IMG/VR virus record: IMGVR_UViG_3300042453_003699
Location: 14,034 to 78,033 of that record
DNA length: 64,000 nt
Source of the DNA: a virus
Strand: one strand, 5' to 3'
Position numbers and translations under genes: made by a program. A model generated the notes under the pieces. It was not told the DNA's origin, made no database searches, and saw only the letters and a program-made list of their open reading frames with translations. This document shows, one piece after another, positions 27,452 to 43,786 of this stretch; within the stretch, counting starts at the first letter, position 1, and every line of letters begins with the position of its first letter.

Positions 27452-28525
27452 ATGAATTTCTTAAAAGAGCTGTTGTTTCTCCAAAGCTGGTACAATCGTC
27501 TTGCCGCGCCCCCTGCGAAGAATTATCCGCCGGGCTGTGTCGCGACGGCTATTCGTACCTGTAAAGAGCTTGGTCGTGACGATCTAGCTGAACAGGTTGA
27601 GAAGGTCTGGGGCGAATGTTTCCAGAAGCACTCGACCGAAATTTTCAAATACCGTGATCGTGGCGACGGTTATATGTTCGCTACAGCTACCAACATTGCG
27701 GCTCGTTCTTTGAACAAGAATCTATTTGGTGGTCCTACTCCTTCCGCTGAAAAGGGTTCGTTCGCAAAAAACTTTGGGTGGTGGTTGGACAAGCAACTAG
27801 GCGATAAGAAAGCCCCTGCTCTGCCTCCGATGCCAGACCCGTTGGATTCTGCTCCTGCTATTGCATTGCCGAAAGCCAACGAAGATATTGACGACTGGGC
27901 GGCACAAGCTAAGAAAACTCAAGAGAGCTTGCAAGCCCTTCAAGCCGCATTTGCAGACACAGAAGACTTTATTCAGGTTCTTGAAAAAGAGATCGGTGAG
28001 ATTGGGCGTAAGATCGCCGACTACGGACCCGGAGGCTCTAAAGAAGTCACCAAGTCTGGGAAGCCTCACAAGTTGTCCTTGCGCGTTCCTAAGTGGCAAA
28101 TAGAACTTGAAATTTACAAAGCTAAACTCGCTGAAACTAAGAGCGGAGTTTCCTCGGCTAAAACTAAGATGGAATCCGCTGAAGCGGCATATCGTAAGAG
28201 TCCAGCCGTTACCGTAGCTTACGAGAAGGAAGCTCAACAATCTCTTGAAGGTGTTCTTGAAGTCATCATGGACATGAAAGACCTCAAAAAGCAGAAAGAG
28301 ATGCTCGCTAAGTTCAATGAAATGGTTAAGAACATGGAGAAGGAAGACAAGAAAGTCGCAAGTATGGAGCGTTCTGCGTCGTTCTGGGACACCATCTTCA
28401 ACGCGTTTGATTCCGTTGTTTCGTTCTTCTCTTCTGCGTGGAAGGGTCTGGTCAAGTGGACCAAATCTCTGTTCGGCGCAGTGGACAAATTTGATAAAGT
28501 TGCAACCGAACTAGGACGCTACTAG
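27452..28525 (+). CDS. Coiled-coil protein with C-terminal amphipathic helices; putative internal virion protein
   Basis: GAGGA RBS; KKVASMERSAS followed by a Phe/Trp-rich amphipathic tail. Confidence 0.7.
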   Translation: MNFLKELLFLQSWYNRLAAPPAKNYPPGCVATAIRTCKELGRDDLAEQVEKVWGECFQKHSTEIFKYRDRGDGYMFATATNIAARSLNKNLFGGPTPSAEKGSFAKNFGWWLDKQLGDKKAPALPPMPDPLDSAPAIALPKANEDIDDWAAQAKKTQESLQALQAAFADTEDFIQVLEKEIGEIGRKIADYGPGGSKEVTKSGKPHKLSLRVPKWQIELEIYKAKLAETKSGVSSAKTKMESAEAAYRKSPAVTVAYEKEAQQSLEGVLEVIMDMKDLKKQKEMLAKFNEMVKNMEKEDKKVASMERSASFWDTIFNAFDSVVSFFSSAWKGLVKWTKSLFGAVDKFDKVATELGRY

Positions 28526-28542
28526 GACCAAGGTCGAGTTGC

Positions 28543-28573
28543 GGGGCGAGCCTTCTACGCCGAGGCTCGCCCC
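28543..28573. terminator. GC-rich hairpin, possible terminator or RNA stabiliser
   Basis: GGGGCGAGCCT-N9-AGGCTCGCCCC; weak U tract. Confidence 0.55.
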
Positions 28574-28598
28574 ACCTTAAAAGAGAGGCTACGGCATA

Positions 28599-28925
28599 AT
28601 GAAGGATGTATTGGCGGAAATTCAGGTTTTGGAACGAAAGATCGCGGAAGCCTACAAGAAGAAATATGACACGCTCGCAAAGCGTATCAAAGCGATCAAG
28701 AAGCCAAATTTCATTTGGAATTTCAAGAAACCGCTTCCCAACGGAAGGACTTTCATCATTTCAAAAGGGGTCGTAAAAGAAAAAGGGAAGTACCGATTAG
28801 AGGGGGAGTGGTGGAATACTCCGTGGTTTGATTCACTAGAAAAACTTGTCAAAACTATTGATTGGGTCGATTTTGAGAGGCGAAGTAAGTACGAAGAATT
28901 CGTGAAGGGGAATAGTCCGTTCTAA
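28599..28925 (+). CDS. Hypothetical protein with EI..LE.KIA leader
   Basis: GAGAGG RBS; 108 aa. Confidence 0.7.
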   Translation: MKDVLAEIQVLERKIAEAYKKKYDTLAKRIKAIKKPNFIWNFKKPLPNGRTFIISKGVVKEKGKYRLEGEWWNTPWFDSLEKLVKTIDWVDFERRSKYEEFVKGNSPF

Positions 28926-28941
28926 TACTTTTGGATAACCT

Positions 28942-28951
28942 TTCCGCCGAA
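28942..28951 (+). promoter_or_regulatory. TTCCGCCGAA motif copy
   Basis: Exact copy 21 nt upstream of TATAAT. Confidence 0.7.
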
Positions 28952-28983
28952 AACCTAGTTGAGAGAATCTCCTATAATGGGGG

Positions 28984-29727
28984 ATGCAAAAACTCATTCA
29001 GTGGTATCAGCGTCAGGTCAAGATCGACGCAACTCTCTCCAAAGAACAACAGACAAAACAAATATACACACAGCTAAAAGCTCTCCGTGATGCGAAATGT
29101 AGGGGCGCAAAAAGCCTAAATGACATACTGCGTTACGAATATGCCTACATTTGTGCGGCACTCAATCTGCGTAACCAAGTGTGGGAATACAACTTCATGG
29201 ATTTCAGTCGGAGGTTGGGTGAATTTTGGGAGAGTTTCTGCAAAGCCGCCTTCCGAAACGCCAACCTCAGAATGTATTCTCCGCCGAAATTTGATTCAGT
29301 CCGTCAAGAGCTTAAACTGCCCAAGAAGCTAATGCCTCTGATTGGCGAAGTGAATCTCAGGCAGGATGTGTCTTTTTACTTCAACCGTAAGCTCCATGTG
29401 ATTGATCTCAAAGGCAGTTTGAACTCGAACGAGAAGGGTCATATCGAGAGGTTACTTCGAGTAGGTGTCGTCTATGAACTGTGGAAACCAAGGTCTAAAC
29501 GGCTGGTCCTCGTCCGCGAGCCTGATGAGAACAATTCTTATTTAGATAAGCTGACCGCTTGTTGGGAAGTGTATGCGGGCGACCAAGCCTACGACAAGAT
29601 CCGAGACATCACGGGAGTTGACTTGAAGGCGTGGGTTGACCGGAATGTGGACTTCAAAAAACACCTCGACCGCCGAATTTTGTCCGTTGTCCGTGACCAA
29701 AATCTTGAAAAATATCTATCATGGTAA
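28984..29727 (+). CDS. PD-(D/E)XK restriction-endonuclease-like protein
   Basis: G..WE helix, QD, and IDLK catalytic-like motif; leaderless start. Confidence 0.55.
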   Translation: MQKLIQWYQRQVKIDATLSKEQQTKQIYTQLKALRDAKCRGAKSLNDILRYEYAYICAALNLRNQVWEYNFMDFSRRLGEFWESFCKAAFRNANLRMYSPPKFDSVRQELKLPKKLMPLIGEVNLRQDVSFYFNRKLHVIDLKGSLNSNEKGHIERLLRVGVVYELWKPRSKRLVLVREPDENNSYLDKLTACWEVYAGDQAYDKIRDITGVDLKAWVDRNVDFKKHLDRRILSVVRDQNLEKYLSW

Positions 29728-29771
29728 ATAATCAAATGAATCACAACGGTCCAATGACCAAGGAGGTAACT

Positions 29772-30110
29772 ATGGCTAAGAAAGCCGTTTCTAAAGCAAA
29801 GACCAAGAGCGCGAAGAGCGCAAAACCATCAACCAAGAGCGCGAAGCCCAAGACTATGGCGGCAAGGCGTGCAGTAGCGACGACCGATAAGACGGGTGAT
29901 GTTTTCCGTTCTATCGTCGGTACTGTTCTTTCCAGCCCACAAAAGGTTTTCACTTCGGCTGATGTCGTTCGCAAGTCTAAGTCTTCGGCTCGTCACAGCC
30001 GTCGCACTCTGGCTTTCCTAGTCAAGAACAACGCCCTGAGCGTCAATCGCACAGAGCGCCCATACCGTTACCAGATTTCCTCTAGGGATCAGCTCAAGCG
30101 GTTTGCCTGA
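29772..30110 (+). CDS. Histone H1-like basic tail plus winged-helix DNA-binding protein
   Basis: AAGGAGG RBS; K/A/S-rich N terminus; FTSADV...RRTLAFLVK..AL......PYRY wHTH pattern. Confidence 0.7.
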   Translation: MAKKAVSKAKTKSAKSAKPSTKSAKPKTMAARRAVATTDKTGDVFRSIVGTVLSSPQKVFTSADVVRKSKSSARHSRRTLAFLVKNNALSVNRTERPYRYQISSRDQLKRFA

Positions 30111-30114
30111 AAGT

Positions 30115-30153
30115 TTAGGACGGGGGTGCAAATTTATTGTGCCCCCGTCCTAA
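30115..30153. terminator. Long hairpin/terminator
   Basis: TTAGGACGGGGG...CCCCCGTCCTAA perfect 12-bp stem with extension. Confidence 0.75.
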
Positions 30154-30194
30154 CCGTCTAATTTTTATTAAAATAGACAGCATAGGAGAGACCA

Positions 30195-30860
30195 ATGGCA
30201 GAACAGAAATTTCAGAGGATTCTATTAAGGCGGGGGGCTCTAGCCGACCTTCCTTCTTTGTCGGAAGGGGAACCGGGCTTTGCCACTGATTCGGAAGAAC
30301 TATTCGTAGGTACAGCTAATGGTAACCGCCGCGTTCTGGCTCCGGTGTACAACCTCATGTACACTCCATTTGACTACACAGACAAGTCTGCGAGCTTGAA
30401 GTATTGGGAGCGCGTCTCCGGCACAGGTACGATGTCTTACGAAAGCTCGGATTCTGTCATCGGTGCGGGTTGTTGGTCTGTCACAGGAACCGGAGTATGG
30501 GCTGTGAACTTCAGCATCCCTTGTAACCCTACCCTCGGTATGGGTGGTCTGGCGTATGTAAAACAGGCTTCAGGTGCCGCTACCATTTCTATTGGATTCA
30601 GGGCTTACGATAGCTCTGGGTCTGAGATTGCTTTCAATGCCTCAGCACAGAACTTTTTAGCCAACGCCGTCTCCGCTTCAGCAAGTTGGACGCAGTATCG
30701 TTCTCACGAGCTTGGAGAGGGTGCAGGTGCATCTCAGCTTCCTTCAGGTACACGATTTGTCCGCGCTCGTTTTGAAGTTTCTGCAAACACAGGAACCACA
30801 AGGCTCGACCATCTCCTGCTCATGCCTTTAGGTTTTTCAGCATACTCGTTGTACGGTTGA
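30195..30860 (+). CDS. Short fibre protein with Mtd/hyaluronidase-type N-terminal domain and carbohydrate-binding-like domain
   Basis: ILLRRG....LP.L..GEPGF.TD...LFVG motif; AGGAG RBS. Confidence 0.75.
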   Translation: MAEQKFQRILLRRGALADLPSLSEGEPGFATDSEELFVGTANGNRRVLAPVYNLMYTPFDYTDKSASLKYWERVSGTGTMSYESSDSVIGAGCWSVTGTGVWAVNFSIPCNPTLGMGGLAYVKQASGAATISIGFRAYDSSGSEIAFNASAQNFLANAVSASASWTQYRSHELGEGAGASQLPSGTRFVRARFEVSANTGTTRLDHLLLMPLGFSAYSLYG

Positions 30861-30869
30861 GGTTGAATA

Positions 30870-31421
30870 ATGTCAGTCGGTGTATTTTGGAAAAAACTAG
30901 CTGAGACCTACTTTGTTCAGGATGGATCTAACATCGTTAGAACCCCTAACCTTTTTAGCAATGGTAACGACTGGTTTTTGATTGATCCGACCGTTCTTCA
31001 GAGCAATTCAGGCGGACCTACGATAACTTCATCTACCTCTGTTTTGAATCTTTTGAGGAAGACGGACGCTACCCTTACTGCACCTACCGCAAACTGTGCG
31101 GAGGGTGCGTGGTCGGCTAATGGTTGGGATACAGGACCGCAGTTAATCATTCAACTTTCGGACTGGGTGAGCGAAAACTTTGATAATCCCGCGTTGAATA
31201 TCAACTACAACGCCATGAACCTTCTCTACACCGAAGTAATCATCTCAGGCACTAAGCACATCCTAGCCTGTTGTTATTTCGGAAATACGGGTTCTATTGC
31301 GATTGCTGATGGCGGGTCGTTTACCTATCAAGACTACTCCTATGAGCTTGTCGGGTACACATTCACTAGCACCATTGACAACCCTCAGCCTGTCGATGGC
31401 GGTCTTTTCGTTTACACCTAA
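30870..31421 (+). CDS. Structural protein carrying the shared ~150-aa domain
   Basis: KLAETY, IDPTVL, W...GW and LNIN motifs shared with 59021..59479. Confidence 0.65.
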   Translation: MSVGVFWKKLAETYFVQDGSNIVRTPNLFSNGNDWFLIDPTVLQSNSGGPTITSSTSVLNLLRKTDATLTAPTANCAEGAWSANGWDTGPQLIIQLSDWVSENFDNPALNINYNAMNLLYTEVIISGTKHILACCYFGNTGSIAIADGGSFTYQDYSYELVGYTFTSTIDNPQPVDGGLFVYT

Positions 31422-31437
31422 GCCTCTATAATGGGGT

Positions 31438-32460
31438 ATGCAGGTACTTTTCAAAAATGTGAGCGTGGAGTTGGTTTCAACCTTTCACGCAAAGAGCTTT
31501 TTCCTTTACGACATCATCCTTCTTACTGACAAGCACGACCCTTTGTTCACGGTCAATGACAAGCCCTATGTGAACAAAGAGAGTAATCTCTCCGCCTTCT
31601 TGTCAAAGGTCTACAAAGGTGATTGGGAGCCTCTTTTCCTCGACCTATTTAACTACAAACCAAATGCAGACGGTCGTCTGCTCACTCTCTTTCTGTCTGA
31701 TGAGGACTATGTAACCTTTGTAGGAAAGTTCATCTGCTCTGTGTTTCCAGAGTTGTCTGTGGCGCATAAAGCAAGGCTGATTCAAGCCGTGTGCGACGAC
31801 ACGCGGTATGTGAAAAGTGGTGTGTTTATGGAAAGGGCGGGGGCTTATTTGAATTTCAACCCTAGCCAAGAGCAGGTCATGGAGGCGGCAAAACAGGAAG
31901 CGTGTAAGCTACCCGACGGGTTTGCAGATCACCTCAGATTTGATTGGGTGGTAGGGCATCATTGGGGGGATCAGGCTCGATTCTTTCCCAAAGTGATTAA
32001 GAATATCCGGTCTATTAGTTTCCAAGAATTCCGCTCGATCGTGTTTAACGATCTGCCCGGAGCTCGCGGTCTTTTCGCGTTCAGCACGGAAAGACCTCTC
32101 CGCGATGTCATGTCAGATGCAGTATTAGCCCCGAGCTTTGATTCTAGCTTTGAATCGAAGTCTTACTATTCAGACCCCGAAGGCTCTGATGTGAAGAGCT
32201 TTATTGAAAAATACGGGGTGAGTTGGATCAGAGAACTCAGCAAAGATATGGCTGTAGGCGCGGACTATCTGCAAAAGTTTCCCGTAGAGCTGATGGTGGA
32301 CGAGAATGAGATGGTAGCTATCGCTTCATCTCCAGAAAAGATGGAGGAATGGTTCCGCCGACTTGTTCTAAACTCAAGTTTTAGGCAGTCCCTCAATTTC
32401 CCTCTCCTTGCGGAGTGGGTGAAGCTCAGGAGAGAAGGTGTTTCTGTCAAAACAGCTTGA
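31438..32460 (+). CDS. Hypothetical protein
   Basis: 340-aa ORF; TATAAT 5 nt upstream of the ATG. Confidence 0.7.
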   Translation: MQVLFKNVSVELVSTFHAKSFFLYDIILLTDKHDPLFTVNDKPYVNKESNLSAFLSKVYKGDWEPLFLDLFNYKPNADGRLLTLFLSDEDYVTFVGKFICSVFPELSVAHKARLIQAVCDDTRYVKSGVFMERAGAYLNFNPSQEQVMEAAKQEACKLPDGFADHLRFDWVVGHHWGDQARFFPKVIKNIRSISFQEFRSIVFNDLPGARGLFAFSTERPLRDVMSDAVLAPSFDSSFESKSYYSDPEGSDVKSFIEKYGVSWIRELSKDMAVGADYLQKFPVELMVDENEMVAIASSPEKMEEWFRRLVLNSSFRQSLNFPLLAEWVKLRREGVSVKTA

Positions 32461-33181
32461 TGTTCCCTACGCTACGGCTGTGGTAGTCCAACTGAAATCC
32501 CTCTTTCATCCAACGAAGGATCGCCTCTAAATCTTCCCTTTCGCTCATCGGAGGGGTCGGGACAGAGATCAAGTGGGATTGGGACTTCAGTATCGTTTCG
32601 TCGATGTGAGTTGAGTAGCTTTTGTTCACCTCTACCAAAACGGAAAAAACAAACCTTGCGCTTCTTCGATCAGGGAAGAAAAGATTCGAGCTTTTACTGT
32701 ATGTCTGGAATGTCAGGGTGGGCAAGATCCGTAAAATATGGGGTATGTCGTACAGCTTCCCAATCGCGAGCTTCTTGTTCGTCAAGTTGTCAAAAAAGAT
32801 AGTGGTGCTGTTGCAAGAAAATCGGCAATTTCTTCCGACAAAAGAATAGCTATCCGTTGTTAGATCCGAAGAGGTCTTCATGGACCTTGATGACAGATTG
32901 TTCCCCGAGATCGAGAACTCGGTGTTGGGGTAGATAGCCAAAAGGTCGCAGGGGTCTGCAACCACCTGCTTTCCATCTACTGTCGCTATTCCGCCTTCTG
33001 GGGCTAAGATAAAAACAAAATCCTCGGAGACCATGACTTCTTGAGTGAGTTCAAATGTCTTTAGAGAACTCTGATCGAAGTCCCGAAATGCGGGTTCGTC
33101 TAGGTCAACATTTGGAATGCCCAAATGCACAAGGTCATACTTATGTTCTTTGATGAAAGGTCCGTCAATAAAACAGATCAT
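32447..33181 (-). CDS. Hypothetical protein (possible cupin-like N terminus)
   Basis: 244-aa ORF abutting the upstream gene. Confidence 0.6.
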   Translation of the reverse strand: MICFIDGPFIKEHKYDLVHLGIPNVDLDEPAFRDFDQSSLKTFELTQEVMVSEDFVFILAPEGGIATVDGKQVVADPCDLLAIYPNTEFSISGNNLSSRSMKTSSDLTTDSYSFVGRNCRFSCNSTTIFFDNLTNKKLAIGKLYDIPHILRILPTLTFQTYSKSSNLFFPDRRSARFVFSVLVEVNKSYSTHIDETILKSQSHLISVPTPPMSEREDLEAILRWMKEGFQLDYHSRSVGNIKLF

Positions 33182-33631
33182 TCATATATTGTAGGAGGGC
33201 GTGTAAAGCTCCACAATTCTTTGCTCAAGCTCTGTAGTCTTCTCCTCGACATCAGGAGGATCAATCCACACTGTCAAAAAATGATTGTACTCAGAACCAA
33301 AAGCATTCTTCGTGGACTCAGATTGATCGGTCTTAGAGGAAAAAAACTGTTCTGTTTCAGTGAGGCGGTACTCCGGCACAATTTCCTTGAACCGATCAAG
33401 CTCGCTTTTTAGTTTGAAGGCGAGAGTGATCTCTCGGTTGTCGCGATCCTCTGGGTGCCCCTCGCACGATGACACCGTGCGTAAACCTTTGGATAAACAC
33501 GCCATAACGAGACGAACTACGCCATCTTCAATGTTCGACAAAAAATTAGGATCTTTCGGCGGTACGAATCTGCCCAAGTTGTCAGTGTTCGGAACCACGA
33601 TACGCCCCGATTTTTGTCTTTCATTTCTCAT
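33182..33631 (-). CDS. Tyw3-like domain protein (putative)
   Basis: IEDGV..LV...G.RTVSSCEGH motif. Confidence 0.5.
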   Translation of the reverse strand: MRNERQKSGRIVVPNTDNLGRFVPPKDPNFLSNIEDGVVRLVMACLSKGLRTVSSCEGHPEDRDNREITLAFKLKSELDRFKEIVPEYRLTETEQFFSSKTDQSESTKNAFGSEYNHFLTVWIDPPDVEEKTTELEQRIVELYTPSYNI

Positions 33632-34350: not shown

Positions 34351-35046
34351 ATGGATTTGCGCTCCTTGTTTCAGAAAGGGTATTCGGTAACAAAGATCGA
34401 AAAGTCGCTCGCTGACAAGGTTTTGGAGGCGATGCCACGGCAGACTTTCAAGTACCCCGACAAGATTACCCAGAAAGAGCACCCTATGTATCATTCCGAC
34501 ACGGGTCTCTTTTATTGCGAATGCGTCACCCCTTTCACCTCAGATCAACCGCCCTTGATGGGTAGGGGATTTCATGAGGGGGATCTCGATTTTTTCACGG
34601 AGTTCTGGGGGCTGATTTCCTATTCGGAAACCTATAAGTGGTATCGGGAATCGTTTGGACCTGTAACGAGGTTCTCAAAGCAGATGCACGATTTCAAAAA
34701 GGGGGAGTCTCTTGGGTTTCATTTTGACTACAAGGACGCAACGCCCTTCATCAACATACTGTATGTCGGGGACGATGACTTCACCGAAGGGGACGGAGGC
34801 TATTTAGAAGTTGGTAAGTGTCGGGTTACGGATGGTTTTGAAATCATCAGGGACTCGATTGAAGTCACGGGTCGGATTTTCCCGAATCACGGAACCCTTG
34901 TGACCCTGAACAATATGACTCCGTACTTCGTTCACTCCGTGGCTCGGCTGATGTCCTCAAAAAAGAGATACAGCTTCATCTGCCAGTTCGGTCACAAGGA
35001 AAACGAACTCTATTCCTTGATCTCTAAGGGTTGGAACATCCGCTAA
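34351..35046 (+). CDS. 2OG-Fe(II) dioxygenase (prolyl-hydroxylase-like)
   Basis: HFD...GGYL...H.V...KRYS facial triad and 2OG-binding Arg. Confidence 0.85.
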   Translation: MDLRSLFQKGYSVTKIEKSLADKVLEAMPRQTFKYPDKITQKEHPMYHSDTGLFYCECVTPFTSDQPPLMGRGFHEGDLDFFTEFWGLISYSETYKWYRESFGPVTRFSKQMHDFKKGESLGFHFDYKDATPFINILYVGDDDFTEGDGGYLEVGKCRVTDGFEIIRDSIEVTGRIFPNHGTLVTLNNMTPYFVHSVARLMSSKKRYSFICQFGHKENELYSLISKGWNIR

Positions 35047-35060: not shown

Positions 35061-35675
35061 ATGAAAAAGATTTATCGTAGGCTAGTTCTTAGTCTCATGC
35101 AGTCTAGGCTGTATTCTTGGGCGTTACTCCATGTGATCCCTTACATTCGATTTACGACTTACTATACCTCACTGCGTGGGTGGAAATACCAAAGGGGCTA
35201 TCGACTTCTTCAAGCAGGAGACATCCTTCTAACGATTGATCGGAAAAAGCTGACGACGGTTCTGATACCGGGCGAGTTCAGTCACGCCGCCTTGTGTGTA
35301 GACAAAGGGTCTGAATTTGAGATCGCTGAGATGACCCACTCCCACTTCACCCGAAGCACTTTTTTTGACATCTGCAAGGAGTCAGACCGAGTTGTGATTC
35401 TCAGGTGTAAGACTTTCGATTACCCCTACATCCAAAAAGTAGTCGAGAAATGCCTGAGCTTTTCTGAAGCGAGTTACGACATCGGATTCGAGTTGGGTAT
35501 CCAATCTCTCTATTGCTCGGAACTCGTGTACCAATCGGATTTTGAACGAAGGATTGGAGCTGACCTTACTGACTTGGCAGGGTTAGGGAGACCCTACATT
35601 TCCCCGACAGGGCTTCGGCAAGCTGATAATGTCGAAGTGGTCTGGGACAGTGACTTGGAAGTTAAGGCTCAATGA
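35061..35675 (+). CDS. Permuted papain-like NlpC/P60 amidase (YiiX/YaeF-like)
   Basis: GDILL, FSHAAL, YD and LYCSELV motifs. Confidence 0.85.
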   Translation: MKKIYRRLVLSLMQSRLYSWALLHVIPYIRFTTYYTSLRGWKYQRGYRLLQAGDILLTIDRKKLTTVLIPGEFSHAALCVDKGSEFEIAEMTHSHFTRSTFFDICKESDRVVILRCKTFDYPYIQKVVEKCLSFSEASYDIGFELGIQSLYCSELVYQSDFERRIGADLTDLAGLGRPYISPTGLRQADNVEVVWDSDLEVKAQ

Positions 35676-36321
35676 CATTTCGGATGTCTTTGAGTCTCGC
35701 TTTGGTGAGGGTGTGCTCGACATAACCCAAGTGAAAAAGGAGGGTATTCCTTTCCTTCTCCGCCTTCACGGGGTCAACCCTGTGTTGGTTCGTGGGGTCT
35801 AGGTTGTTGATGACTACGAGGGTTCCGTGATTCGGAAGTATCCGATCGAATAGGGCGACTGAATCCCCGATAGCCCGACCCACTCCAAGCCAACCCCCAT
35901 CTTCGTATGTAAACTCATCGGGCGTTAGATACAGACAACAGGTGATGGCGGTAGCGTCCAAGGAGTCGGTATGCCAAACCATACCGTCCCCGTTTCGGAA
36001 TCGGTTAATCATAGGGCAACCCTGAGAAAACTCACCTAGAGCCTCTCTGATCGGCTTGAAGAAGGAGTGTACCTTGGCTTGGTTGTAGAAGTCGGTAAGC
36101 TCCTGCGGGGCATCCTTGTTCTCTGAGGGGATAATTTTACTGCTTTCCCATTTGGATATGAGGGGTGCGCGGAAGTTTTCACTCGCGTAAACCCCATCCC
36201 CTTCCACAAAAGGTTGCCTCTGGATCACCCCTAACAGGTAGTCGCTCATGGATTTTTCAACCTTAGCGACGCAGTAACCTTTTTTGAAAAATGATCTAAG
36301 GTTCAGATTTCCTTCAATCAT
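35662..36321 (-). CDS. 2OG-Fe(II) dioxygenase, paralog of 34351..35046
   Basis: WHTD...GGWL...HRV...ERNT. Confidence 0.85.
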   Translation of the reverse strand: MIEGNLNLRSFFKKGYCVAKVEKSMSDYLLGVIQRQPFVEGDGVYASENFRAPLISKWESSKIIPSENKDAPQELTDFYNQAKVHSFFKPIREALGEFSQGCPMINRFRNGDGMVWHTDSLDATAITCCLYLTPDEFTYEDGGWLGVGRAIGDSVALFDRILPNHGTLVVINNLDPTNQHRVDPVKAEKERNTLLFHLGYVEHTLTKARLKDIRNVIEP

Positions 36322-36343: not shown

Positions 36344-37306
36344 ATGATAGGCAGAAAGGCACGCACGCTATCAAATACTTTGATCGCCTTCGATGCGGAT
36401 TCCACCCAGTTCGAGAAGCTGAGTGATCGCGTCATTGCGTACCTTCGTGAAAACCAGATTATGGCTTTGCCCACGGACCGCCCGTTCCATGTATCCGTAT
36501 CGTATATCTCGAATGCCCAAGAAGAGGACGATTTGATTGGACTCATGGAAGAGGCTGAGGGTGCGGGGAGGTTCCACAGTAAGACGCTTGTTCCGTTAAA
36601 AGGGAAAAATGGTAGTACCTACATAGCGTTGCAGGTGGAAGCCTCCCCAAAGTTTTTCAATTTCAAGAGGAAGGTGGACGACCACACCAAGTCTCGGGGC
36701 TTTGCTCGTGGGTTCAAGACCCACATAAGTCTTGCGAAATTTCCATCTTGGCAAATGCGACAGGGGTTGATGGAGGAGCTAAACAAAAAGTTTAATCCAG
36801 TATTTTCCATCAACTCTGACAGGGTACTTTTGTACGACCAGTCCCATAAGATTTACAGGTCAATGGAGGCTAACTTGGAACTTGCAGATCATCTCAAAGC
36901 TCACAACCGAATGAGCTACCGTTCGATGGAAACCATGATGCGGAAGATTTTGGACCGCAACACGAAAGGGTTCTTCAAAGACAATCACTGGGCTCCCGTC
37001 CACAAGATTCAAAACGAGCTTTCGGCTGAAATGATCGACATGGACCTGATGCGTTCCAAATACTTCCACAACAAAGACTCCACCTCATCGGAACCTGACG
37101 GTAAAGAATGGGTTTTTGAGGTGTACTACGGGGATGAAGGTGGTTGGACCCTGCGCGTAGTCGCGAGTTTCGGTCCAAGCCCGACCAGCGACCCTATGTC
37201 GGTTTACGATTTGGTCTACACTCTGACATGGAGCAAAAAAATCAAAAAGGAAGCCTCTCTTTCTTCCAAGCTCCGTAAGATCGCGTCTTCCTTAAAAATG
37301 GGCTGA
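36344..37306 (+). CDS. 2H phosphoesterase (2'-5' RNA ligase/Acb1-like fold) fused to an unknown domain
   Basis: Two Hx(S/T) motifs, FHVSV and THISL, about 80 aa apart. Confidence 0.75.
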   Translation: MIGRKARTLSNTLIAFDADSTQFEKLSDRVIAYLRENQIMALPTDRPFHVSVSYISNAQEEDDLIGLMEEAEGAGRFHSKTLVPLKGKNGSTYIALQVEASPKFFNFKRKVDDHTKSRGFARGFKTHISLAKFPSWQMRQGLMEELNKKFNPVFSINSDRVLLYDQSHKIYRSMEANLELADHLKAHNRMSYRSMETMMRKILDRNTKGFFKDNHWAPVHKIQNELSAEMIDMDLMRSKYFHNKDSTSSEPDGKEWVFEVYYGDEGGWTLRVVASFGPSPTSDPMSVYDLVYTLTWSKKIKKEASLSSKLRKIASSLKMG

Positions 37307-37390: not shown

Positions 37391-37789
37391 ATGTCTGATA
37401 AGAACGACCAGAAAGAGAAGGACAAAAAGGACGGCATTGTGCTTAAAGCCATGCTCTCCCCTTCTGACATCGACGAGATGTTAGACCGATACGCTTTACC
37501 TGAAGGCAAGCGGACCAACTCTTTCGCTCGACAAGCCCAACTAGACATTCGTAGGCTTCTGTCTGAGATCGAGTTCATGAAGAGGCTACTGGACAACGGC
37601 TCCTTTTGCGGACCCGGCGTCCACGACCTCCGCATCATGACGACGAACTACTACAAGAAGATTCCGGGCACGGACGAGGACGATCGAACCTGCGCTTACG
37701 CCAGTCTATTCTGCACTAAGTGCGCGTGGACTAAGGAGATTGTGGCGGCGGACTACCGAGGTACTTACTTCACCAAGAAGGATGAGTAA
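37391..37789 (+). CDS. Hypothetical protein with a zinc-binding C terminus
   Basis: C...H and CTKC; follows tandem TTCCGCCGAA sites. Confidence 0.6.
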   Translation: MSDKNDQKEKDKKDGIVLKAMLSPSDIDEMLDRYALPEGKRTNSFARQAQLDIRRLLSEIEFMKRLLDNGSFCGPGVHDLRIMTTNYYKKIPGTDEDDRTCAYASLFCTKCAWTKEIVAADYRGTYFTKKDE

Positions 37790-37812
37790 AGATTCAATAT
37801 CCTTCGCCTTGT

Positions 37813-38952
37813 ATGGGAAAGGTAGCCGATCGGCTCCGACAGATAGCCAAAATAGCCGTAGCCAAGTATGTCACTCGTTCGGGGGACTTACTGGTAGCCT
37901 ACCCTAATAGAAGCGGTGCGACCGTTCTAGTCAAGAAATCAGGGACCAAATATGAGATCGTCTCCCTGAAGCAAAATAGGATTTGGGGGAGCTACGCAAT
38001 CTCTTACGCTCAGGCAAAGGGCGTTGCGGGTATTGTACCCAACATCAGGCTTCGCGATGTCACCAACGAAGCCGCTTTTCTTGAGGTTCTGGAAAACCCC
38101 AGTCGTGTTCTTAAAGGCGACTTGATGCAGGACATAGCACAGCTATCAAAAATACTTGGCAAGCTCAAGTATTACGAGGTGGTCGATGAGGCGAAAGCCC
38201 TCAAGCTCCTCACGCTCAAGGAAAGCATTCCCGTCGCCTATCTCAAGAGATACCTTCCAGAGCTTCCTACGGATCAGGAGGGGTCGCATCAGAAGATTGG
38301 ACCGTTTGATGTCTCCTTTGACCACGAAAATGAGGGCGAGAGGCAAGCGATCGAAAACTTGATTGAACGCGCTGTCCAGACGCTAGGGTCGGCGGGCTTC
38401 GGGGATTACCTGTACGGCAAGATATTTGTTGTAAGCAAACTCAAGGGGCGCACCGTAGCTGATTACCACCCCTCAGACGATTCTATCCGACTCAGCCACA
38501 AGGCTAAGGGCAAAGAGGATTTGAGAACCTTCATTCACGAAATTGGGCACCGCATACTTAACAAGGGTGGCGCGGATTATCCCAAGATCAAAGCTAAGTT
38601 CCGTGAAGCAGTGCAGGGTTTTTCTCTTGAGGTCAAACCGGGTACGATCCTGAAAGACAAGAAAGACGGAAAGACCTACAAATATGTGGGGCAATCTTTT
38701 CAAGCTCGTTCTACTCCATACAAGATTAAGCAGGTTTTGACTGAGAACGGCGAGACCATCGAACGAGGTGACTATAGGGTCAGCGCATTCTATTTCACGA
38801 ACTTCGAGGGAGACTTTAAGATCAACGGCGAGTGGTTTCCCACTGCCTATTCCAAAACGAACCAAGAGGAATGGTTCTGTGAGATTCTGTCTTTCGCACT
38901 CACGAGGGGAGATAAGATTTTCCTAGATTTTATCAAGGAAGTCAGGAAGTGA
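37813..38952 (+). CDS. Zincin-like metallopeptidase
   Basis: HEIGH plus distal Y..TN.EEWFCE motif. Confidence 0.75.
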   Translation: MGKVADRLRQIAKIAVAKYVTRSGDLLVAYPNRSGATVLVKKSGTKYEIVSLKQNRIWGSYAISYAQAKGVAGIVPNIRLRDVTNEAAFLEVLENPSRVLKGDLMQDIAQLSKILGKLKYYEVVDEAKALKLLTLKESIPVAYLKRYLPELPTDQEGSHQKIGPFDVSFDHENEGERQAIENLIERAVQTLGSAGFGDYLYGKIFVVSKLKGRTVADYHPSDDSIRLSHKAKGKEDLRTFIHEIGHRILNKGGADYPKIKAKFREAVQGFSLEVKPGTILKDKKDGKTYKYVGQSFQARSTPYKIKQVLTENGETIERGDYRVSAFYFTNFEGDFKINGEWFPTAYSKTNQEEWFCEILSFALTRGDKIFLDFIKEVRK

Positions 38953-38953
38953 C

Positions 38954-38982
38954 TTGATTTTGTGTCTTGCTCGTCGAATACT
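38954..38982 (+). promoter_or_regulatory. Sigma70-like promoter
   Basis: TTGATT-N17-AATACT upstream of the ORF at 38992; one-mismatch motif copy at 39001. Confidence 0.45.
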
Positions 38983-38991
38983 AAATTGGTG

Positions 38992-39333
38992 ATGTTCAGA
39001 ATCGGCGGAAAACAAGAACAACTTGTAATGACCAGAACAGGGGTCACTGCCGAATCCCTACTACGAGTTCTTCAGCTTTTCAGGGACCACTCTCCTGACA
39101 ATCAGATCCGAAGTGGCGCTAGGTTCATGATTTTATTGATTTCTCAGACACTTCGATCATCTATACGGAATGTAGGCTTGACGAAGGTCACGGTGAGTTT
39201 CAAATGGCTCCGCGAGCTTTCAACTAGAGTAAGTAGCATGGCTGTTCACAAGAATCTGCCAGCCGCTTGGTTTGTGGTTGCCTTGGTAAATGAGATAGTG
39301 CCGCAAGAAAAGGACGAGGAGCTTACTCAATGA
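38992..39333 (+). CDS. Hypothetical protein
   Basis: ORF downstream of the promoter; start uncertain. Confidence 0.5.
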   Translation: MFRIGGKQEQLVMTRTGVTAESLLRVLQLFRDHSPDNQIRSGARFMILLISQTLRSSIRNVGLTKVTVSFKWLRELSTRVSSMAVHKNLPAAWFVVALVNEIVPQEKDEELTQ

Positions 39334-39470
39334 AGTACAAAATCGTGATTGAATTTGAAGCCGACAATGTTTCCGCTACCGAGATTAAGAACTTAATCGA
39401 GACTACGGTGGATTGTTGCCCTCTTCTTATGGAAGGGGCTACTGTCGAGATGACGGAGACTACGGGTTGA
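39330..39470 (+). CDS. Small 46-aa protein absent from the ORF track
   Basis: GAGGAG RBS, ATGA overlap, MKYKIVIEFEAD... Confidence 0.55.
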   Translation: MKYKIVIEFEADNVSATEIKNLIETTVDCCPLLMEGATVEMTETTG

Positions 39471-39654
39471 GGGCAGACTTTACTAACTCGAATACAAATT
39501 CAGGAAACCCATTCTTCGAGAAGTCTCTTCGCTCGGTTTTTTCTTTAGACCACTGTAGATAGGCATTATTCTCAGGGGTCTCGTAGTTGTAGCAAGACAG
39601 GATCTTTTTCAAGACCTCCTCGTACTTCTGAGCTTTCAGCTCTAACTCTGTCAC
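39460..39654 (-). CDS. Small hypothetical protein
   Basis: GTGA overlap and AAGGA RBS. Confidence 0.55.
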   Translation of the reverse strand: MTELELKAQKYEEVLKKILSCYNYETPENNAYLQWSKEKTERRDFSKNGFPEFVFELVKSALNP

Positions 39655-39986
39655 TTTAGAATCCTTTCAAGACTGGCTATCTCTTCTAGTATAGTAGCGT
39701 ACTTCTCTTGAAACGATTCAGGGGCTCTATCGAACTTGTCGTCGTACTTCAGTTTCCGAGTGACGAAAGTTTTTGGCATCATGCCCATGTCGATTAACTT
39801 GGCTAAGTCGTCAAAGCTGACTGCTTTTCCTAGAGCGCCGAAAGTCCAGTTCACGAAAGTCGGGATAGACACTTTGCCAACATCAAGGATCATCTCGATC
39901 TGACTCTTCTTGGTGATCTTACCCTCTCGAACATAGTCCATGAGGGTCTCAAGGTACTTGTTCTCGTCGATCTTACTTGTTTTCAT
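39651..39986 (-). CDS. Hypothetical protein with C-terminal EI..LE motif
   Basis: Probable start MKTSK at 39986; ends ILEEIASLERILK. Confidence 0.6.
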   Translation of the reverse strand: MKTSKIDENKYLETLMDYVREGKITKKSQIEMILDVGKVSIPTFVNWTFGALGKAVSFDDLAKLIDMGMMPKTFVTRKLKYDDKFDRAPESFQEKYATILEEIASLERILK

Positions 39987-40212
39987 ACTCATCCCACAAA
40001 CTCTGACAGAACGCCCAAGTAGCATCATCCGAAGGGAACTTATCCTTCATCTTGTCGTGGCACTTGGTTCTCTTGTGCTTCGCGTCACCGACTAGGGTGT
40101 CCCAGAACTGCTTACGGGAGCCTTCGTTCCAACCCTCGGGCATGGAATCCCACTTAGTGGCTACTTTTGCTTCAAGAGCTTGGATCTGGGATTCGATGTC
40201 TTTTTTCTTCAT
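39973..40212 (-). CDS. Small protein with QI..LE.KVA leader
   Basis: GAGGAG RBS; 79 aa. Confidence 0.7.
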   Translation of the reverse strand: MKKKDIESQIQALEAKVATKWDSMPEGWNEGSRKQFWDTLVGDAKHKRTKCHDKMKDKFPSDDATWAFCQSLWDEYENK

Positions 40213-40265
40213 GAGGCTCCTCTATATCTCTTTAATAATAGTCGTACTTTATCAGGAGAAGTCTC

Positions 40266-40580
40266 ATGAGCATCAGTTACAGGGTCGCGAAAAGATTCGA
40301 GTTACGGCGGGAGAAGCTAATAGCGGATTTCTTGGCGGGTATCGGGACTACCTCCGAGAGTGAGGCAGCGTTTTTCCTATCAAACGAGTTTGGGATCAAT
40401 CCTTTTGATGCTCGTGATTTGATTGAAGAGTACCGCGAGTTGGAAAGTGCGGGGCACCCCTCCGAAAAAGATGTTCTCCCCCTCATTTCAAAATACGCTA
40501 CCGCTGAAAAAGTAGCCTGTGGGTGCGGATGTGGTTGCGATTGCTACAATAAATGTGACTGCGGGTGCGGGTGTCACTGA
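40266..40580 (+). CDS. Protein with RVA.RF leader and metallothionein-like Cys tail
   Basis: AGGAG RBS; ends KVACGCGCGCDCYNKCDCGCGCH. Confidence 0.7.
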   Translation: MSISYRVAKRFELRREKLIADFLAGIGTTSESEAAFFLSNEFGINPFDARDLIEEYRELESAGHPSEKDVLPLISKYATAEKVACGCGCGCDCYNKCDCGCGCH

Positions 40581-41605
40581 TGAAAAAGATAGCGCGTATT
40601 CACAAAATTGCTTGGTCGATCGCCCTTCGTTTTGCAAAGGTGAAAGACAAGTTCGAGATCACCGAGAGCGACCTTGTTAAAAACCCAAACCCCAAAGGGG
40701 TCAAGGAATGGGTTACCCAAGAATACGCGGATCAATTCCTATCAAAAGCAAAGAGTCCTAAGAGTCATGGGGAAAAGCTCAAGCAGAACCCCCCTCAGCC
40801 ATCGGACCCAGAGATGAGGTTTACACCTCCGGCGGGTAAAGAACGAGCTGAGTTTAACCGTGAGCAACTGAAGAAGAGAGACCCTAGCTCCAAGAACAAG
40901 CACAAGTTCCGTGGTCTAAGTCCTGAAGAAACAAAACGAGCCGAAGAGCTTTCAAAAAAGAAGGGTTCCGAGTGTACCTTTGACGACATTGCTGAGTTTA
41001 TAGGATTTTTTGAAAAGTCCTACGAAGAGTCCAAGAATTGGGCAAAAACCTTCCTCAAGGGTGGTGCAAAAACTTACAGCGGTCGTTGGAAGGACGAGCA
41101 GTCTCTTTTAGAAAAAATGAACGGTAAGTTTGCACACCGAACTCTTGAGACTGTCGGAGATGTAGTTGCAAATAGGTGCGTGTGCTCTTCGAGAGCCGAT
41201 CAAGCGAAACTGGTCGATTACATCTACGAAAATTGCGTCATCCTTGAGCACGACAACATTGTCGATAACCCTCGCGGGGACGGGTACAGCGCCCACCATT
41301 TTACTTTGGAAGCGCCTGACGGAAGGCTCATTGAGCTTCAAGTGAAAACTGAGAACCAACAGACCTTCTCGGGTTGGAGCCATGACGCGATTTACAAGAA
41401 CAAAGAGGTCAGTGAAAACGGCAAGCCTAAGTACCCAGAGGTGGCGAAGTATGCCCTAGATTTGGGCAACTACATCAATGAAATTGACAGTGGTAAAGAA
41501 CCATCTACCCCGCCCCCTCAACCCCCTGCTATACTGTTAAAGATCCTAAAGGGTCAAAATAAGAAACCGTTTGATCTCAAGGAAATTAAGAGGGTTGGGG
41601 CATGA
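40580..41605 (+). CDS. RelA/SpoT-family small alarmone synthetase (toxSAS, CapRel-like toxin)
   Basis: R.K...SL.EK, D....R, GY.A.H, IELQVKT..Q...W.H...YK synthetase motifs. Confidence 0.85.
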   Translation: MKKIARIHKIAWSIALRFAKVKDKFEITESDLVKNPNPKGVKEWVTQEYADQFLSKAKSPKSHGEKLKQNPPQPSDPEMRFTPPAGKERAEFNREQLKKRDPSSKNKHKFRGLSPEETKRAEELSKKKGSECTFDDIAEFIGFFEKSYEESKNWAKTFLKGGAKTYSGRWKDEQSLLEKMNGKFAHRTLETVGDVVANRCVCSSRADQAKLVDYIYENCVILEHDNIVDNPRGDGYSAHHFTLEAPDGRLIELQVKTENQQTFSGWSHDAIYKNKEVSENGKPKYPEVAKYALDLGNYINEIDSGKEPSTPPPQPPAILLKILKGQNKKPFDLKEIKRVGA

Positions 41606-41823
41606 AGAACTTTTTAGTGGTTAGAGACGAGCATAAGAATACTTTAGAAGTTTTGGAGTTTGATACCACTGCGGATGCTCGGAAAGAAAAGCTATCTCGC
41701 AGGAAGAGCGGGCACAAAGGCGAACTCGTTCTTGCATACGGTTCAGACTTGAAATCGTTTCTTGAAACTTTCACAGAGTATCGCCCCGAGAACTGGCGAG
41801 AGCTGATTAGAAAATCCCTTTAA
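41602..41823 (+). CDS. Putative CapRel-type antitoxin
   Basis: ATGA overlap with the SAS; FLVV.D...EF....A......ELVL..S.L......F.EY pattern resembling the CapRel antitoxin domain. Confidence 0.55.
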   Translation: MKNFLVVRDEHKNTLEVLEFDTTADARKEKLSRRKSGHKGELVLAYGSDLKSFLETFTEYRPENWRELIRKSL

Positions 41824-42166
41824 CGCCCGTCTTTCCACTTTTTGCTTTCTTTTGTGACGGAAGAGGGCGCTCAAATACATGGTAAAGCTGATCGGGGTAT
41901 TCCCCGACTTTGGTGCTACCCAAGTAACGAAGCCCAGCGGAGTGAACGATTTCACCTGTTCTGAAAATGTGGAATATCCGCTCTCGGTATGGGGAGTGAT
42001 CCGCGCACTCAAGGCAAATCAGATACAGTATGAAGTTCCCCTCATAGCAGACGCTCTGAATACCAATGACTTTAGTTAGGATTGGTAGAGCCACCTTGCA
42101 TTCCGGTGGTTTCAACTCATAGACGCTGATGATCTGGTTGCCCTTGGTGAGCGTTTCTTTGACCAT
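41807..42166 (-). CDS. Conserved phage hypothetical protein
   Basis: Probable start at 42166; F.TG......YLG........HVFE pattern. Confidence 0.6.
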   Translation of the reverse strand: MVKETLTKGNQIISVYELKPPECKVALPILTKVIGIQSVCYEGNFILYLICLECADHSPYRERIFHIFRTGEIVHSAGLRYLGSTKVGEYPDQLYHVFERPLPSQKKAKSGKTGVKGIF

Positions 42167-42180
42167 ACCCAAGGAGCATA

Positions 42181-42651
42181 TTACTCTGCTAACCTTTTTA
42201 GCCAGTTTTTGTAGGAGTTTGTTACCTTTTTCACATACGCACGAATATGCGAGTTGTTGGTGCAAGCCGAAACCTTCACCGCGAATCCCGCGTTGTGGCA
42301 ACAAATGATCTGCTCGGGGTCGTCGAAACGCTCCGCGCATTTCTTCAGATGCAGAACCCCTAGCCGTGTGTTCACGGAGGGGTTCATGAGTTCTTCTACC
42401 GTTCCTTTGAATCCCATCGACCGAGCGGTCGGGTAAAATAGTTGAAACAACCCTACGCTATAGGTCTTGAATTTCGGCTCGTATCTTAAAGCCTTGTGGT
42501 TGAAATTGCTCTCTACCTCCGCTACTGCCAAAACCAGAGCGGGTTCTAAACCATGAGCCTGAGCCGTTTTTTTAATCTCATCGTGGGTTTTGCTCTCTTG
42601 TGCAAAGACAGCGGAACTCACGAGGAGTAGTAAGATGGGTGTAAATTTCAT
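42181..42651 (-). CDS. Lytic transglycosylase (SLT) with signal peptide
   Basis: VES catalytic motif, GLFQL, HNAG; N-terminal signal ending AVFA. Confidence 0.9.
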   Translation of the reverse strand: MKFTPILLLLVSSAVFAQESKTHDEIKKTAQAHGLEPALVLAVAEVESNFNHKALRYEPKFKTYSVGLFQLFYPTARSMGFKGTVEELMNPSVNTRLGVLHLKKCAERFDDPEQIICCHNAGFAVKVSACTNNSHIRAYVKKVTNSYKNWLKRLAE

Positions 42652-42906
42652 TCAGTTGAGGCGAGTGGAGATTCCAGCCGCCAAGTCGAATCCGCTGAGG
42701 ATGTCTTGGTTGAACTGGATCTTGCTCGCTTGTTTAAGGCGATCGTTCTCTCGATTGAGGCGTTCCACCCTCTCGACAAGATCGCCCTGCATTGCGATGA
42801 TCCTTTGCATATCGCGCAGTCTCTCAGAGAGATGAATGTTCTCTGCTCGCAGAGTCTCATTCGCCATCTCAAGCTCGTCAATGCGTTTCGTGTAATCGGG
42901 TCTCAT
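42652..42906 (-). CDS. Coiled-coil hypothetical protein
   Basis: AGGAGG RBS; heptad pattern. Confidence 0.65.
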   Translation of the reverse strand: MRPDYTKRIDELEMANETLRAENIHLSERLRDMQRIIAMQGDLVERVERLNRENDRLKQASKIQFNQDILSGFDLAAGISTRLN

Positions 42907-42972
42907 ATTCCTCCTGATTTTAGCTCCGACTATCTTAGTCAGAGAATGTTACCTATTGTGGTTTAATCTTGC

Positions 42973-43004
42973 AAATAAAAACGCCGAGGTTGCCCTCGGC
43001 GTTT
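42973..43004 (-). terminator. Rho-independent terminator
   Basis: AAACGCCGAGG-TTGC-CCTCGGCGTTT with an A tract on the left side. Confidence 0.8.
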
Positions 43005-43026
43005 AGTAAAAACTAACTGATAGATT

Positions 43027-43302
43027 TTAGCCAGTTACGCCGTGCGTAATGCTGACAACTCCCAAATCGGAGAAAGTCTTGAGGGCACCGATAGATGCGG
43101 AGAGGAGAACTTCTCCGGTTTCTTCGACGAGAAGGTCGTCGCCGGGATTGAGGTAGAAGTCCTGTCCAAGATATTCAAGAGTGCCTACATGGTCTAAACG
43201 ACGACCAATGTCTCCAAGGTAGATAGCTCCGACGGTATCACCGACGGCAAAACCACCGCCAGCGGTGGAAACAGTTCCATTGTGTACAAGACGAGTTTTC
43301 AT
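43027..43302 (-). CDS. Small putative virion protein
   Basis: Monocistronic layout: CTAATA upstream, AGGAG RBS, own terminator. Confidence 0.7.
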   Translation of the reverse strand: MKTRLVHNGTVSTAGGGFAVGDTVGAIYLGDIGRRLDHVGTLEYLGQDFYLNPGDDLLVEETGEVLLSASIGALKTFSDLGVVSITHGVTG

Positions 43303-43336
43303 TCTGTTCTCCTGTTAGATGCGAGGTATTAGTCCT

Positions 43337-43786
43337 CTATTTGAAGATCCAACTTAGAGCTTTAGTCAAACTATTCTCGACTTCTGGCTCCAAGGTGTGC
43401 GGGGGTTCAAACGCTACCCCCACAACGAAAGTTAAGGTTACATTCTTCAGTTCGCTCATTTTCTTGGGTACTCCCCAGTAGTCCTCAAGCCATGCGGTCA
43501 GCTCAAAGTCCGTGAGCTTTCTGATTACTGAGTGAAGTTCCGAGTCGAGCTTCTTCTTGTTGGATTGACTGAAAAACAACTCCTCGAAGGCTTCGCTGAG
43601 GTTTTCATCATCCAGATGAGAGTCCGTATAGTACATCGCCTCGGCATCGAGTTCGGCGGAATGTTTGGTCATATCGCCTAGATTGACCTTGATTTCATAC
43701 AGGATTTTACCCCGTTCCTGATCTTTCTTTTGGGTACTGGTTTGGAAAGAAGCCCAACGCAAGGCTACCCTATCCGCAGTTTTCAT
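43337..43786 (-). CDS. Hypothetical protein with KTADRVALRW leader
   Basis: Probable start at 43786 with GAGG RBS. Confidence 0.65.
   Translation of the reverse strand: MKTADRVALRWASFQTSTQKKDQERGKILYEIKVNLGDMTKHSAELDAEAMYYTDSHLDDENLSEAFEELFFSQSNKKKLDSELHSVIRKLTDFELTAWLEDYWGVPKKMSELKNVTLTFVVGVAFEPPHTLEPEVENSLTKALSWIFK

Follow-up and report, generated by a model that had tools for sequence, protein, structure and literature searches.

The present analysis concerns a window of 64,000 nucleotides, bases 14,034–78,033 of one 78,033-bp contig (IMG/VR record IMGVR_UViG_3300042453_003699), and a short peptide, here called the leader, that recurs at the N-termini of otherwise unrelated proteins in this contig and in a related genome. 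The leader is an amphipathic N-terminal helix of 16–22 residues with net positive charge and two sub-consensus forms, and it is very probably a real, portable element shared by many unrelated proteins. Four proteins in the window can be classed as members: a zincin-like protein (gene beginning at 37813), a RelA/SpoT-type toxSAS (40580), a 79-residue protein (40212) and a 108-residue protein (28599). To judge from its sequence, the leader is most likely an address tag. Loading of the tagged proteins into the capsid is the leading candidate for its function, put forward tentatively.

The leader in a second genome and in metagenomes

An earlier note on this DNA had picked out the motif [KR][VI]A as a tag recurring, in two types called A and B, at the termini of unrelated proteins. 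The motif, now specified beforehand, was counted in a second and independent genome, G001 (IMGVR_UViG_3300047476_002078; 355,874 bp, direct terminal repeats, rated complete, 523 called genes), which turned up in IMG/VR through a profile search with toxSAS. Homologues of 58 of the 89 contig proteins are present in G001 at approximately 23–84% identity, and G+C is 34% in G001 compared with 47% in the contig. The motif was N-terminal in 25 of the 523 G001 proteins against 8.9±3.0 in within-terminus shuffles, none of 2000 shuffles reaching 25, and the N-terminal excess over protein interiors was likewise strong (Fisher 8e-8). The same pipeline gave 6 proteins against 4.4 expected (P 0.27) in phage T4, which is similar to G001 in G+C (150 kb, or 89%, of its genome; 232 genes; 35% G+C), and 7 against 5.8 expected (P 0.37) in Tunturi_5 (224 kb, or 72%; 248 genes). 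Because G001 is enriched and T4 and Tunturi_5 are not, the excess is specific to this lineage. A portable terminal tag on unrelated proteins, as had been supposed, exists as an N-terminal leader family, but its definition by three residues was too loose.

A hidden Markov model (HMM) iterated on the proteomes of both phages converged on approximately 24 G001 proteins together with the zincin and toxSAS of the window. When whole G001 proteins (107k residues) were searched with the iterated model, 23 matches were N-terminal compared with eight internal and one C-terminal, the internal and C-terminal remainder corresponding to the noise rate in T4. Whole T4 proteins gave no N-terminal match at 5 bits or more, and one of 232 N-terminal 45-residue windows from T4 reached 5.6 bits. 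The leader proteins of G001 range in length from 63 to 663 residues and are unrelated to each other once the first 25 residues are removed. Their leaders have a mean net charge of +2.3 compared with +0.5 for other N-termini of that genome, and their genes are found in islands at 89–96, 109–113 and 168–170.5 kb.

The division into types A and B was borne out, the two being sub-forms of one N-terminal family. The first form reads roughly M-K-K-I-x-x-K-L-x-K-[IV]-A-x-x-L-E-K and the second roughly M-K-K-[IV]-L-A-E-I-x-x-L-E-x-K-[IL]-A-x-x-[YW]. In many of the proteins one or two further modules, likewise short and conserved, come after the leader, together with a variable linker. One such module, termed Y (Y.EYKK.HP.TKKT..DP.F), follows the leader in seven G001 proteins. 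A 205-residue G001 protein unrelated to toxSAS, g1_120680, has the leader, the Y module and then a further module, termed N (LV[KR]NPN..G.K..TQ.YAD), which occurs in toxSAS as well; these N-terminal regions are thus mosaics, put together from modules that are short and portable. Orthologue searches over 5.8 billion proteins returned five to seven sequences each for the zincin, toxSAS and a 149-residue window protein considered below. In all three sets the tag residues were invariant, and column identity was 0.81–0.92 in the tag compared with 0.64–0.75 overall, with a dip thereafter. Since the N-terminal segment is strongly conserved yet, in the two proteins modeled (toxSAS and the 149-residue protein), lies outside the predicted fold, it has the appearance of a linear motif or tag.

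Several other sources of the shared N-termini were tried and rejected. The shared residues are encoded by different codons, so the signal lies at the protein level and not in a DNA repeat or regulatory element beneath the motif. The word TAATAATAG, considered as a shared promoter near three of the tagged genes, occurred 10 times against 6.8 expected and was not enriched. Homology of a whole N-terminal domain among the zincin, toxSAS and the 149-residue protein was sought with hhalign, which found nothing beyond a tag of 14 columns.

The spread of the leader was assessed by searching 1.84 billion representatives with a profile of 49 positions that covered the leader and the Y module. There were 100 cluster representatives at E≤1e-3, with 26 at E≤1e-10. 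In 74 of the 100 the module starts within the first 12 residues, and many of the rest appear to come from gene calls extended too far. The 86 representatives with at least 40 cargo residues fell into 55 BLAST cargo clusters, and near-identical leaders were found on unrelated cargos in different metagenomes. Pfam domains were recognized on a minority of cargos, namely PARP (four), LPD1 (three), topoisomerase IB (two), GNAT (two) and, once each, a DUF3293/SAM-lyase-like domain, DnaJ and an ADP-ribosyltransferase exoenzyme; a few cargos matched PHROGs named head decoration, minor head or virion structural protein. No Pfam family matched the leader or the Y module itself. A scan of IMG/VR with leader plus Y module recovered only G001 and two near-identical strains. 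A third related phage, L002, known from a 95.6-kb freshwater metagenome contig, encodes a 293-residue protein with leader and Y module (44 bits; 16360–17241, + strand). G001 also has two large paralogues, at 39196–41187 and 86873–89050, that combine leader and Y module with a C-terminal PARP-like ADP-ribosyltransferase domain, recognized by Pfam in the first (7e-24) and judged by eye from H-Y-E-type motifs in the second.

Leader proteins of the window

The two type B proteins of the window were recovered by a model blind to it, an HMM built only from the 74 outside metagenomic representatives, and they were the top two matches in the contig at 17.6 and 14.3 bits, compared with a T4 maximum of 10.1. 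The higher score belongs to the 108-residue protein (gene 28599–28925, + strand), the leader of which comprises residues 1–19 (28599..28655); approximately 16 of these 19 residues were identical, by eye, to the leaders of representatives carrying the Y module. The gene is positioned at the end of a tail/baseplate operon and is syntenic with the leader gene g1_342909 of G001. The other member of the pair is the 79-residue protein (gene 39973–40212, − strand; leader residues 1–21, 40150..40212), whose G001 orthologue, at 69% identity, scored 11.9 bits with the iterated G001 model.

The zincin-like protein and toxSAS are type A members, with 17.2 and 20.4 bits respectively in the iterated HMM, although both proteins had been used in training it. 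The zincin-like protein has 379 residues (gene 37813–38952, + strand) and its leader comprises residues 1–20 (37813..37872). In seven orthologues, conservation is highest in residues 11–20 (0.81 compared with 0.64 overall), beyond which the alignment is variable and rich in indels. The head module of G001 also encodes, three genes upstream of the prohead protease (295114–295635), a small metalloprotease-like protein with a HEIGH motif, whose N-terminus is leader-like; it may be a distant counterpart of the window zincin.

The leader of toxSAS (gene 40580–41605, + strand) comprises residues 1–19 (40580..40636), among which K9, A11, A15, L16 and R17 are invariant in six orthologues. A RelA_SpoT domain follows (PF04607, 9.2e-14, 52 bits against a cut-off of 27) and is kept in the six orthologues. 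In the AlphaFold2 model, residues 1–28 had a predicted local distance difference test score (pLDDT) below 50, with a lone helix at residues 2–19, and residues 56–79 formed a disordered linker ahead of a confidently predicted catalytic domain. Between the leader and this linker is the second portable module, N, at residues 31–53 (LVKNPNP.G.K..VTQEYAD.F; 40670..40738, + strand), which is conserved at 0.87 in the orthologues. The toxSAS gene is overlapped at its end by a 73-residue open reading frame (ORF) through an ATGA overlap (40580–41823 for the pair), and both are kept in G001, with 40% and 49% identity. From its arrangement the pair is a candidate toxin-immunity pair.

Two further window proteins are possible members, with membership not established. 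The 149-residue protein (gene 43337–43786, − strand) may have a short form of the leader in its N-terminal 13 residues (43748..43786). Conservation in this protein is highest at the N-terminus (0.92), where D5 and V7–S13 are invariant in five orthologues, and in the AlphaFold2 model residues 1–12 had a mean pLDDT of 36 compared with 73–95 for the remainder. The N-terminal stretch is similar to the latter half of the toxSAS leader and was the top match to the toxSAS profile in hhalign, over 14 columns but with E 0.026 and a probability of 1.9%, and its HMM score was at noise level. No PDB match to the fold was found at E≤0.001. The other is a 104-residue Cys-rich protein (gene 40266–40580, + strand), the first 11 residues of which (40266..40298) have no HMM support; they have the motif [VI]A.[KR][FWY] in common with three neighbors. 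Of the five matches to this motif, defined post hoc, in 24.6k residues, four fall within the first 25 residues of neighboring genes at 39973–43801. The 104-residue protein also has a C-terminal Cys-Gly-rich tail with alternating C and G/D that resembles a metal-binding tail, and it had no match in Pfam or PHROG.

All nine strings quoted in the earlier note were found in the genes to which it had assigned them, and eight are terminal as claimed, six at N-termini (28599, 37813, 40212, 40266, 40580 and 43786) and two at C-termini (36344 and 39651); the ninth, KKVAS, is internal. The C-terminal strings could not be upheld as tags, scoring 4.1–4.9 bits, within T4 noise. The KLRKIASSLKMG terminus of the 2H-like protein (37268..37303; gene 36344–37306, + strand) scored 4.1 bits, and in a 474-residue G001 homologue, g1_59676, the part aligned with it is an internal helix. 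The terminus LEEIASLERIL of a 125-residue protein (39657..39689; gene 39651–40028, − strand) scored 4.9 bits compared with 5.7–7.4 for T4 matches at any position. KKVAS (28349..28363, + strand) is at residue 300 of a 357-residue protein (gene 27452–28525), has no HMM match and is attributable to chance. Among the enzymes that the note had named as tagged, toxSAS and the zincin are members but the 2H protein has a string at noise level. The identities of the three enzymes also differ in firmness, that of toxSAS being sound (RelA_SpoT 9e-14), that of the zincin depending on a HEIGH motif invariant in seven orthologues with no Pfam match to the protein, and that of the 2H protein being weak (Pfam E 0.005, below cut-off).

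Proposed capsid loading and its rivals

On the capsid-loading reading, the leader would bind one common partner, most likely the acidic scaffold or core of the prohead. Tagged proteins would then be packed inside the head and delivered to the host together with the DNA, the route that the capsid-targeting sequence (CTS) of T4 provides for IPI–III and Alt. The payload would consist of small proteins and of takeover or anti-defence enzymes, among them toxSAS and the zincin and, in relatives, PARP-like ADP-ribosyltransferases and a SAM-lyase-like protein. Within the producing cell toxSAS could be held in check by the product of the conserved overlapping 73-residue ORF, the retention of which in G001 would be expected if the toxin must be made safely late in infection.

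The proposal has a precedent in T4. The T4 CTS is an N-terminal propeptide of 10–20 residues found on IPI, IPII, IPIII and Alt (PMC3012670, PMC5694885), and Alt is an ADP-ribosyltransferase (PMC5694885). As in T4, the sole common part of diverse proteins here is a short N-terminal peptide (16–22 residues), present on at least 24 unrelated proteins in G001 and on four in the window. In both cases the tagged set includes many small proteins along with some takeover or anti-defence enzymes, Alt having its parallel in the two leader-tagged PARP-like proteins of G001, and in both cases the genes occupy variable islands, the internal-protein loci of T4 and the leader islands of G001. There is no sequence resemblance between the CTS and the leader, and leader HMMs did not rise above noise in T4, a comparison in which it was not checked if the internal proteins had been called as genes or accounted for the weak matches. 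T4 also has a gp21-type S77 protease that cuts after (L/I)-x-E, neither of which is detectable for the leaders. Unlike the CTS, the leaders add Y and N modules to form a mosaic address region, and their scale is far larger: a single genome has at least 24 such proteins, and the cargos known from metagenomes form at least 55 groups.

A second parallel is with ejection proteins of giant phages. SPN3US gp53 and gp54 have an identical N-terminus, and these proteins and phiKZ gp93 are diverged but keep a short N-terminus thought to direct them into the prohead (PMC5694885). As with the leader, the phages are jumbo myoviruses and diverged proteins have a short N-terminus in common. The giant-phage proteins, however, are paralogues for which mass spectrometry has proved cleavage at A/S-x-E by a T4-like protease, whereas the leader cargos have unrelated folds and the protease is of another family. 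MuF polymorphic toxins of temperate phages, such as the RelA/SpoT-like pyrophosphokinase Apk2, have a virion-associated N-terminal part and an adjacent immunity gene (PMC5576092, PMC12226406). The RelA/SpoT-type domain of toxSAS likewise stands behind an N-terminal part, and the conserved overlapping 73-residue ORF that follows the gene would be a candidate for the immunity function. In contrast to MuF toxins, toxSAS lacks a MuF domain (RelA_SpoT was the only Pfam domain), its N-terminal part is a peptide of approximately 20 residues with short modules and not a head-morphogenesis domain, and it belongs to a jumbo phage.

Encapsulin cargo-loading peptides and the encapsulation peptides of bacterial microcompartments are short terminal amphipathic helices joined by a poorly conserved linker to unrelated cargo, and they bind the interior of the shell; encapsulin shells and phage capsids have the HK97 fold in common. 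The leader proteins are predicted to be built in the same way, with a terminal helix, flexible linker and unrelated cargo, as seen in AlphaFold pLDDT and conservation profiles, but the motifs differ and the context is viral.

Some features of gene content and position are circumstantial pointers to capsid loading, as are the few cargo matches to head and virion-structural PHROGs and the clustering of leader genes in islands. The range of cargos (PARP/ADP-ribosyltransferase at 7e-24, DUF3293/SAM-lyase-like, LPD1, topoisomerase IB, GNAT, toxSAS and zincin) resembles that of known injected effectors. The neck/tail operon of G001 contains the gene of a strong member, g1_313048, and the baseplate operon ends with the 28599 gene in the contig and with g1_342909 in G001. 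Leader-like N-termini are also encoded immediately upstream of the G001 prohead protease (phrog_18299, 2e-12), and a scaffold-like protein (300193–301500) encoded between the protease and capsid (302637–303506) genes has a net charge of −66, opposite in sign to the basic leaders.

Weighing against capsid loading are a number of results. The leader-like genes beside the G001 protease score weakly with the leader HMM, at no more than 3.1 bits. The capsid protein and protease of Tunturi_5 are 52% and 48% identical to those of G001, yet Tunturi_5 has no leader enrichment, so the tag is not tied to conserved head machinery. PF03420, the T4-type S77 protease family, was absent from G001 at E≤10, and the G001 protease had no BLASTP similarity to gp21. 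Cleavage after K/R-x-A, which the earlier note had anticipated, found nothing in its support, and no conserved cut site could be defined in the leader. No 7-mer was enriched upstream of the 24 G001 leader genes, most of which are tightly inside operons. A tblastn search with a module member found nothing in 50,697 phage records, and thus no cultured phage with the module. Finally, the contig represents 78 kb of a genome of approximately 345 kb and the head module is outside it, and gene starts were taken from a simple home-made caller based on codon scores, which gave the 89 genes of the contig. PDB sequence searches with the G001 protease and scaffold-like protein were uninformative and Pfam was empty for the whole head module.

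An alternative explanation could be that the leader docks tagged proteins onto some other common partner, such as a chaperone of phage or host, a protease or degradation adaptor, a modifying enzyme or a compartment built by the phage inside the cell. We regard this as possible but rather doubtful. What the data show is only a conserved, detached and portable peptide, the retention of head machinery by Tunturi_5 without the leader would be readily accommodated, most leader genes are in islands among non-structural genes, and the Y and N modules look like extra short binding motifs; however, no candidate partner gene was seen beside the leader islands, a result that does not extend to gene co-occurrence across the 100 representatives, and a cargo spectrum of ADP-ribosyltransferases, toxSAS, SAM-lyase-like protein and LPD1 fits injected effectors better. 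It is improbable that the leader is a generic amphipathic helix for membrane or nucleic-acid targeting or for coiled-coil self-association, with the likeness among leaders arising from physical requirements and not from one receptor. Such a helix would be consistent with the heptad-like hydrophobic spacing, the positive net charge, the considerable variation in sequence between sub-forms and the lone helix modeled in toxSAS, but not with an order-specific signal far above composition-matched shuffles or with near-identical leaders on unrelated cargos from different metagenomes. Neither acidic positions as conserved as those of L-E-K nor a module rich in proline and lysine, such as Y, is a feature of membrane anchors, and T4, at the same G+C, has no such excess.

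Chance and composition, i.e. N-termini rich in Lys, Ile and Ala and a motif picked after looking, would suffice for the window by itself, in which nothing exceeds chance. [KR][VI]A was within the first 20 residues of six of the 89 contig proteins compared with 1.4–2.2 expected, a nominal p of 0.001–0.016. Since the motif had been chosen after seeing the data, all 39,304 three-position class motifs were scanned; it ranked 141st, and every one of 100 null scans on pseudo-termini from protein interiors gave a better best motif. The excess over shuffled termini that the earlier note had proposed as a test was therefore present in G001 but not significant in the contig alone after this look-elsewhere correction. 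Similarly, the type B pair (28599 and 39973) ranked fourth in an all-against-all comparison of N-terminal 25-mers, after three true paralogue pairs, with a score of 43, which 6% of shuffles and 22% of nulls from interior windows also attained. The noise-level scores of the C-terminal and internal instances, and the want of profile support for 43786 and 40266, are of the same kind. As an account of the whole phenomenon, however, chance is highly improbable and is already refuted by replication of a pre-specified motif in an independent genome with clean negative controls, by the 26 matches at E≤1e-10 among 1.84 billion proteins and by the recovery of both type B window proteins with an outside model. 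It stays the best account of KKVAS and of the C-terminal items at 36344 and 39651.

If capsid loading is the function of the leader, the leader would mark the proteins that an uncultured jumbo phage injects with its DNA and would allow candidate takeover and anti-defence effectors, most of them without a known domain, to be listed from sequence. ToxSAS would then be delivered as a protein rather than expressed from a toxin-antitoxin locus, and the leader would offer a new, longer and modular packaging tag for foreign proteins in large capsids. A more ambitious version, which we consider on the whole unlikely, is that leader, Y module and N module make up a combinable address code with which one uncultured jumbo-phage lineage would load more than 50 unrelated families into the capsid for injection, with ready-made toxSAS, ADP-ribosyltransferases, topoisomerase IB and acetyltransferases as payload. 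Even with another partner, a peptide on at least 55 cargo groups that is missing from Pfam would point to an undescribed hub of phage biology.

Genomic setting and neighboring genes

The contig is a piece of an uncultured jumbo myovirus, apparently of a virulent type. This assignment follows from its tail sheath (phrog_2839, 4e-27), nearest among cultured phages to that of Tunturi_5 at 34% identity over 99% of the sheath, and from its gene content, including a Volactin-type actin, glycosyltransferases and an S8 subtilase. Tunturi_5 is a 309-kb jumbo phage of Acidobacteriota (PMC11924767). A recorded contig of 345,241 bp encodes proteins identical to three products of the present one. Among the scanned proteins of the present contig none was recognized as capsid, portal or terminase, searches of IMG/VR with single proteins gave no close relatives, and blastn against cultured phages gave no match; tblastn gave distant RelA/SpoT matches only for toxSAS and none for the 149-residue protein or a Y-module protein. 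The contig is a fragment, with its last ORF running off the end. At its other end, upstream of the window, positions 1–70 form a perfect inverted repeat or hairpin in which the first 25 or so bases are the reverse complement of approximately 46–70. This terminal hairpin looks like an assembly artefact, and the first called gene is probably truncated.

Several other genes of these phages are of interest in their own right. A Volactin-family actin-like protein (PF25216, 2.9e-65) is encoded between neck and sheath genes at 4389–5435 (+ strand) of the window and, at 84% identity, is the best-conserved protein common to the contig and G001; an archaeal-type actin was unexpected inside the structural module of a bacterial jumbo phage. 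Just upstream of the window, in the structural region, is the S8 subtilase (contig 12451–13776; Pfam 6e-62), which has no G001 homologue and is immediately preceded by a small gene with a weakly leader-like N-terminus (4.1 bits). In the G001 prohead protease (298039–299670), approximately 15 PEQAQ repeats in tandem separate the protease domain from a C-terminal domain of approximately 170 residues. Finally, three paralogues of approximately 215–230 residues, two in the window (34351–35046, + strand; 35662–36321, − strand) and one at 1831–2475 (− strand) of the contig, have a common N-terminal block with the top pairwise N-terminal score, 67; all three match one L002 protein and have relatives in G001.

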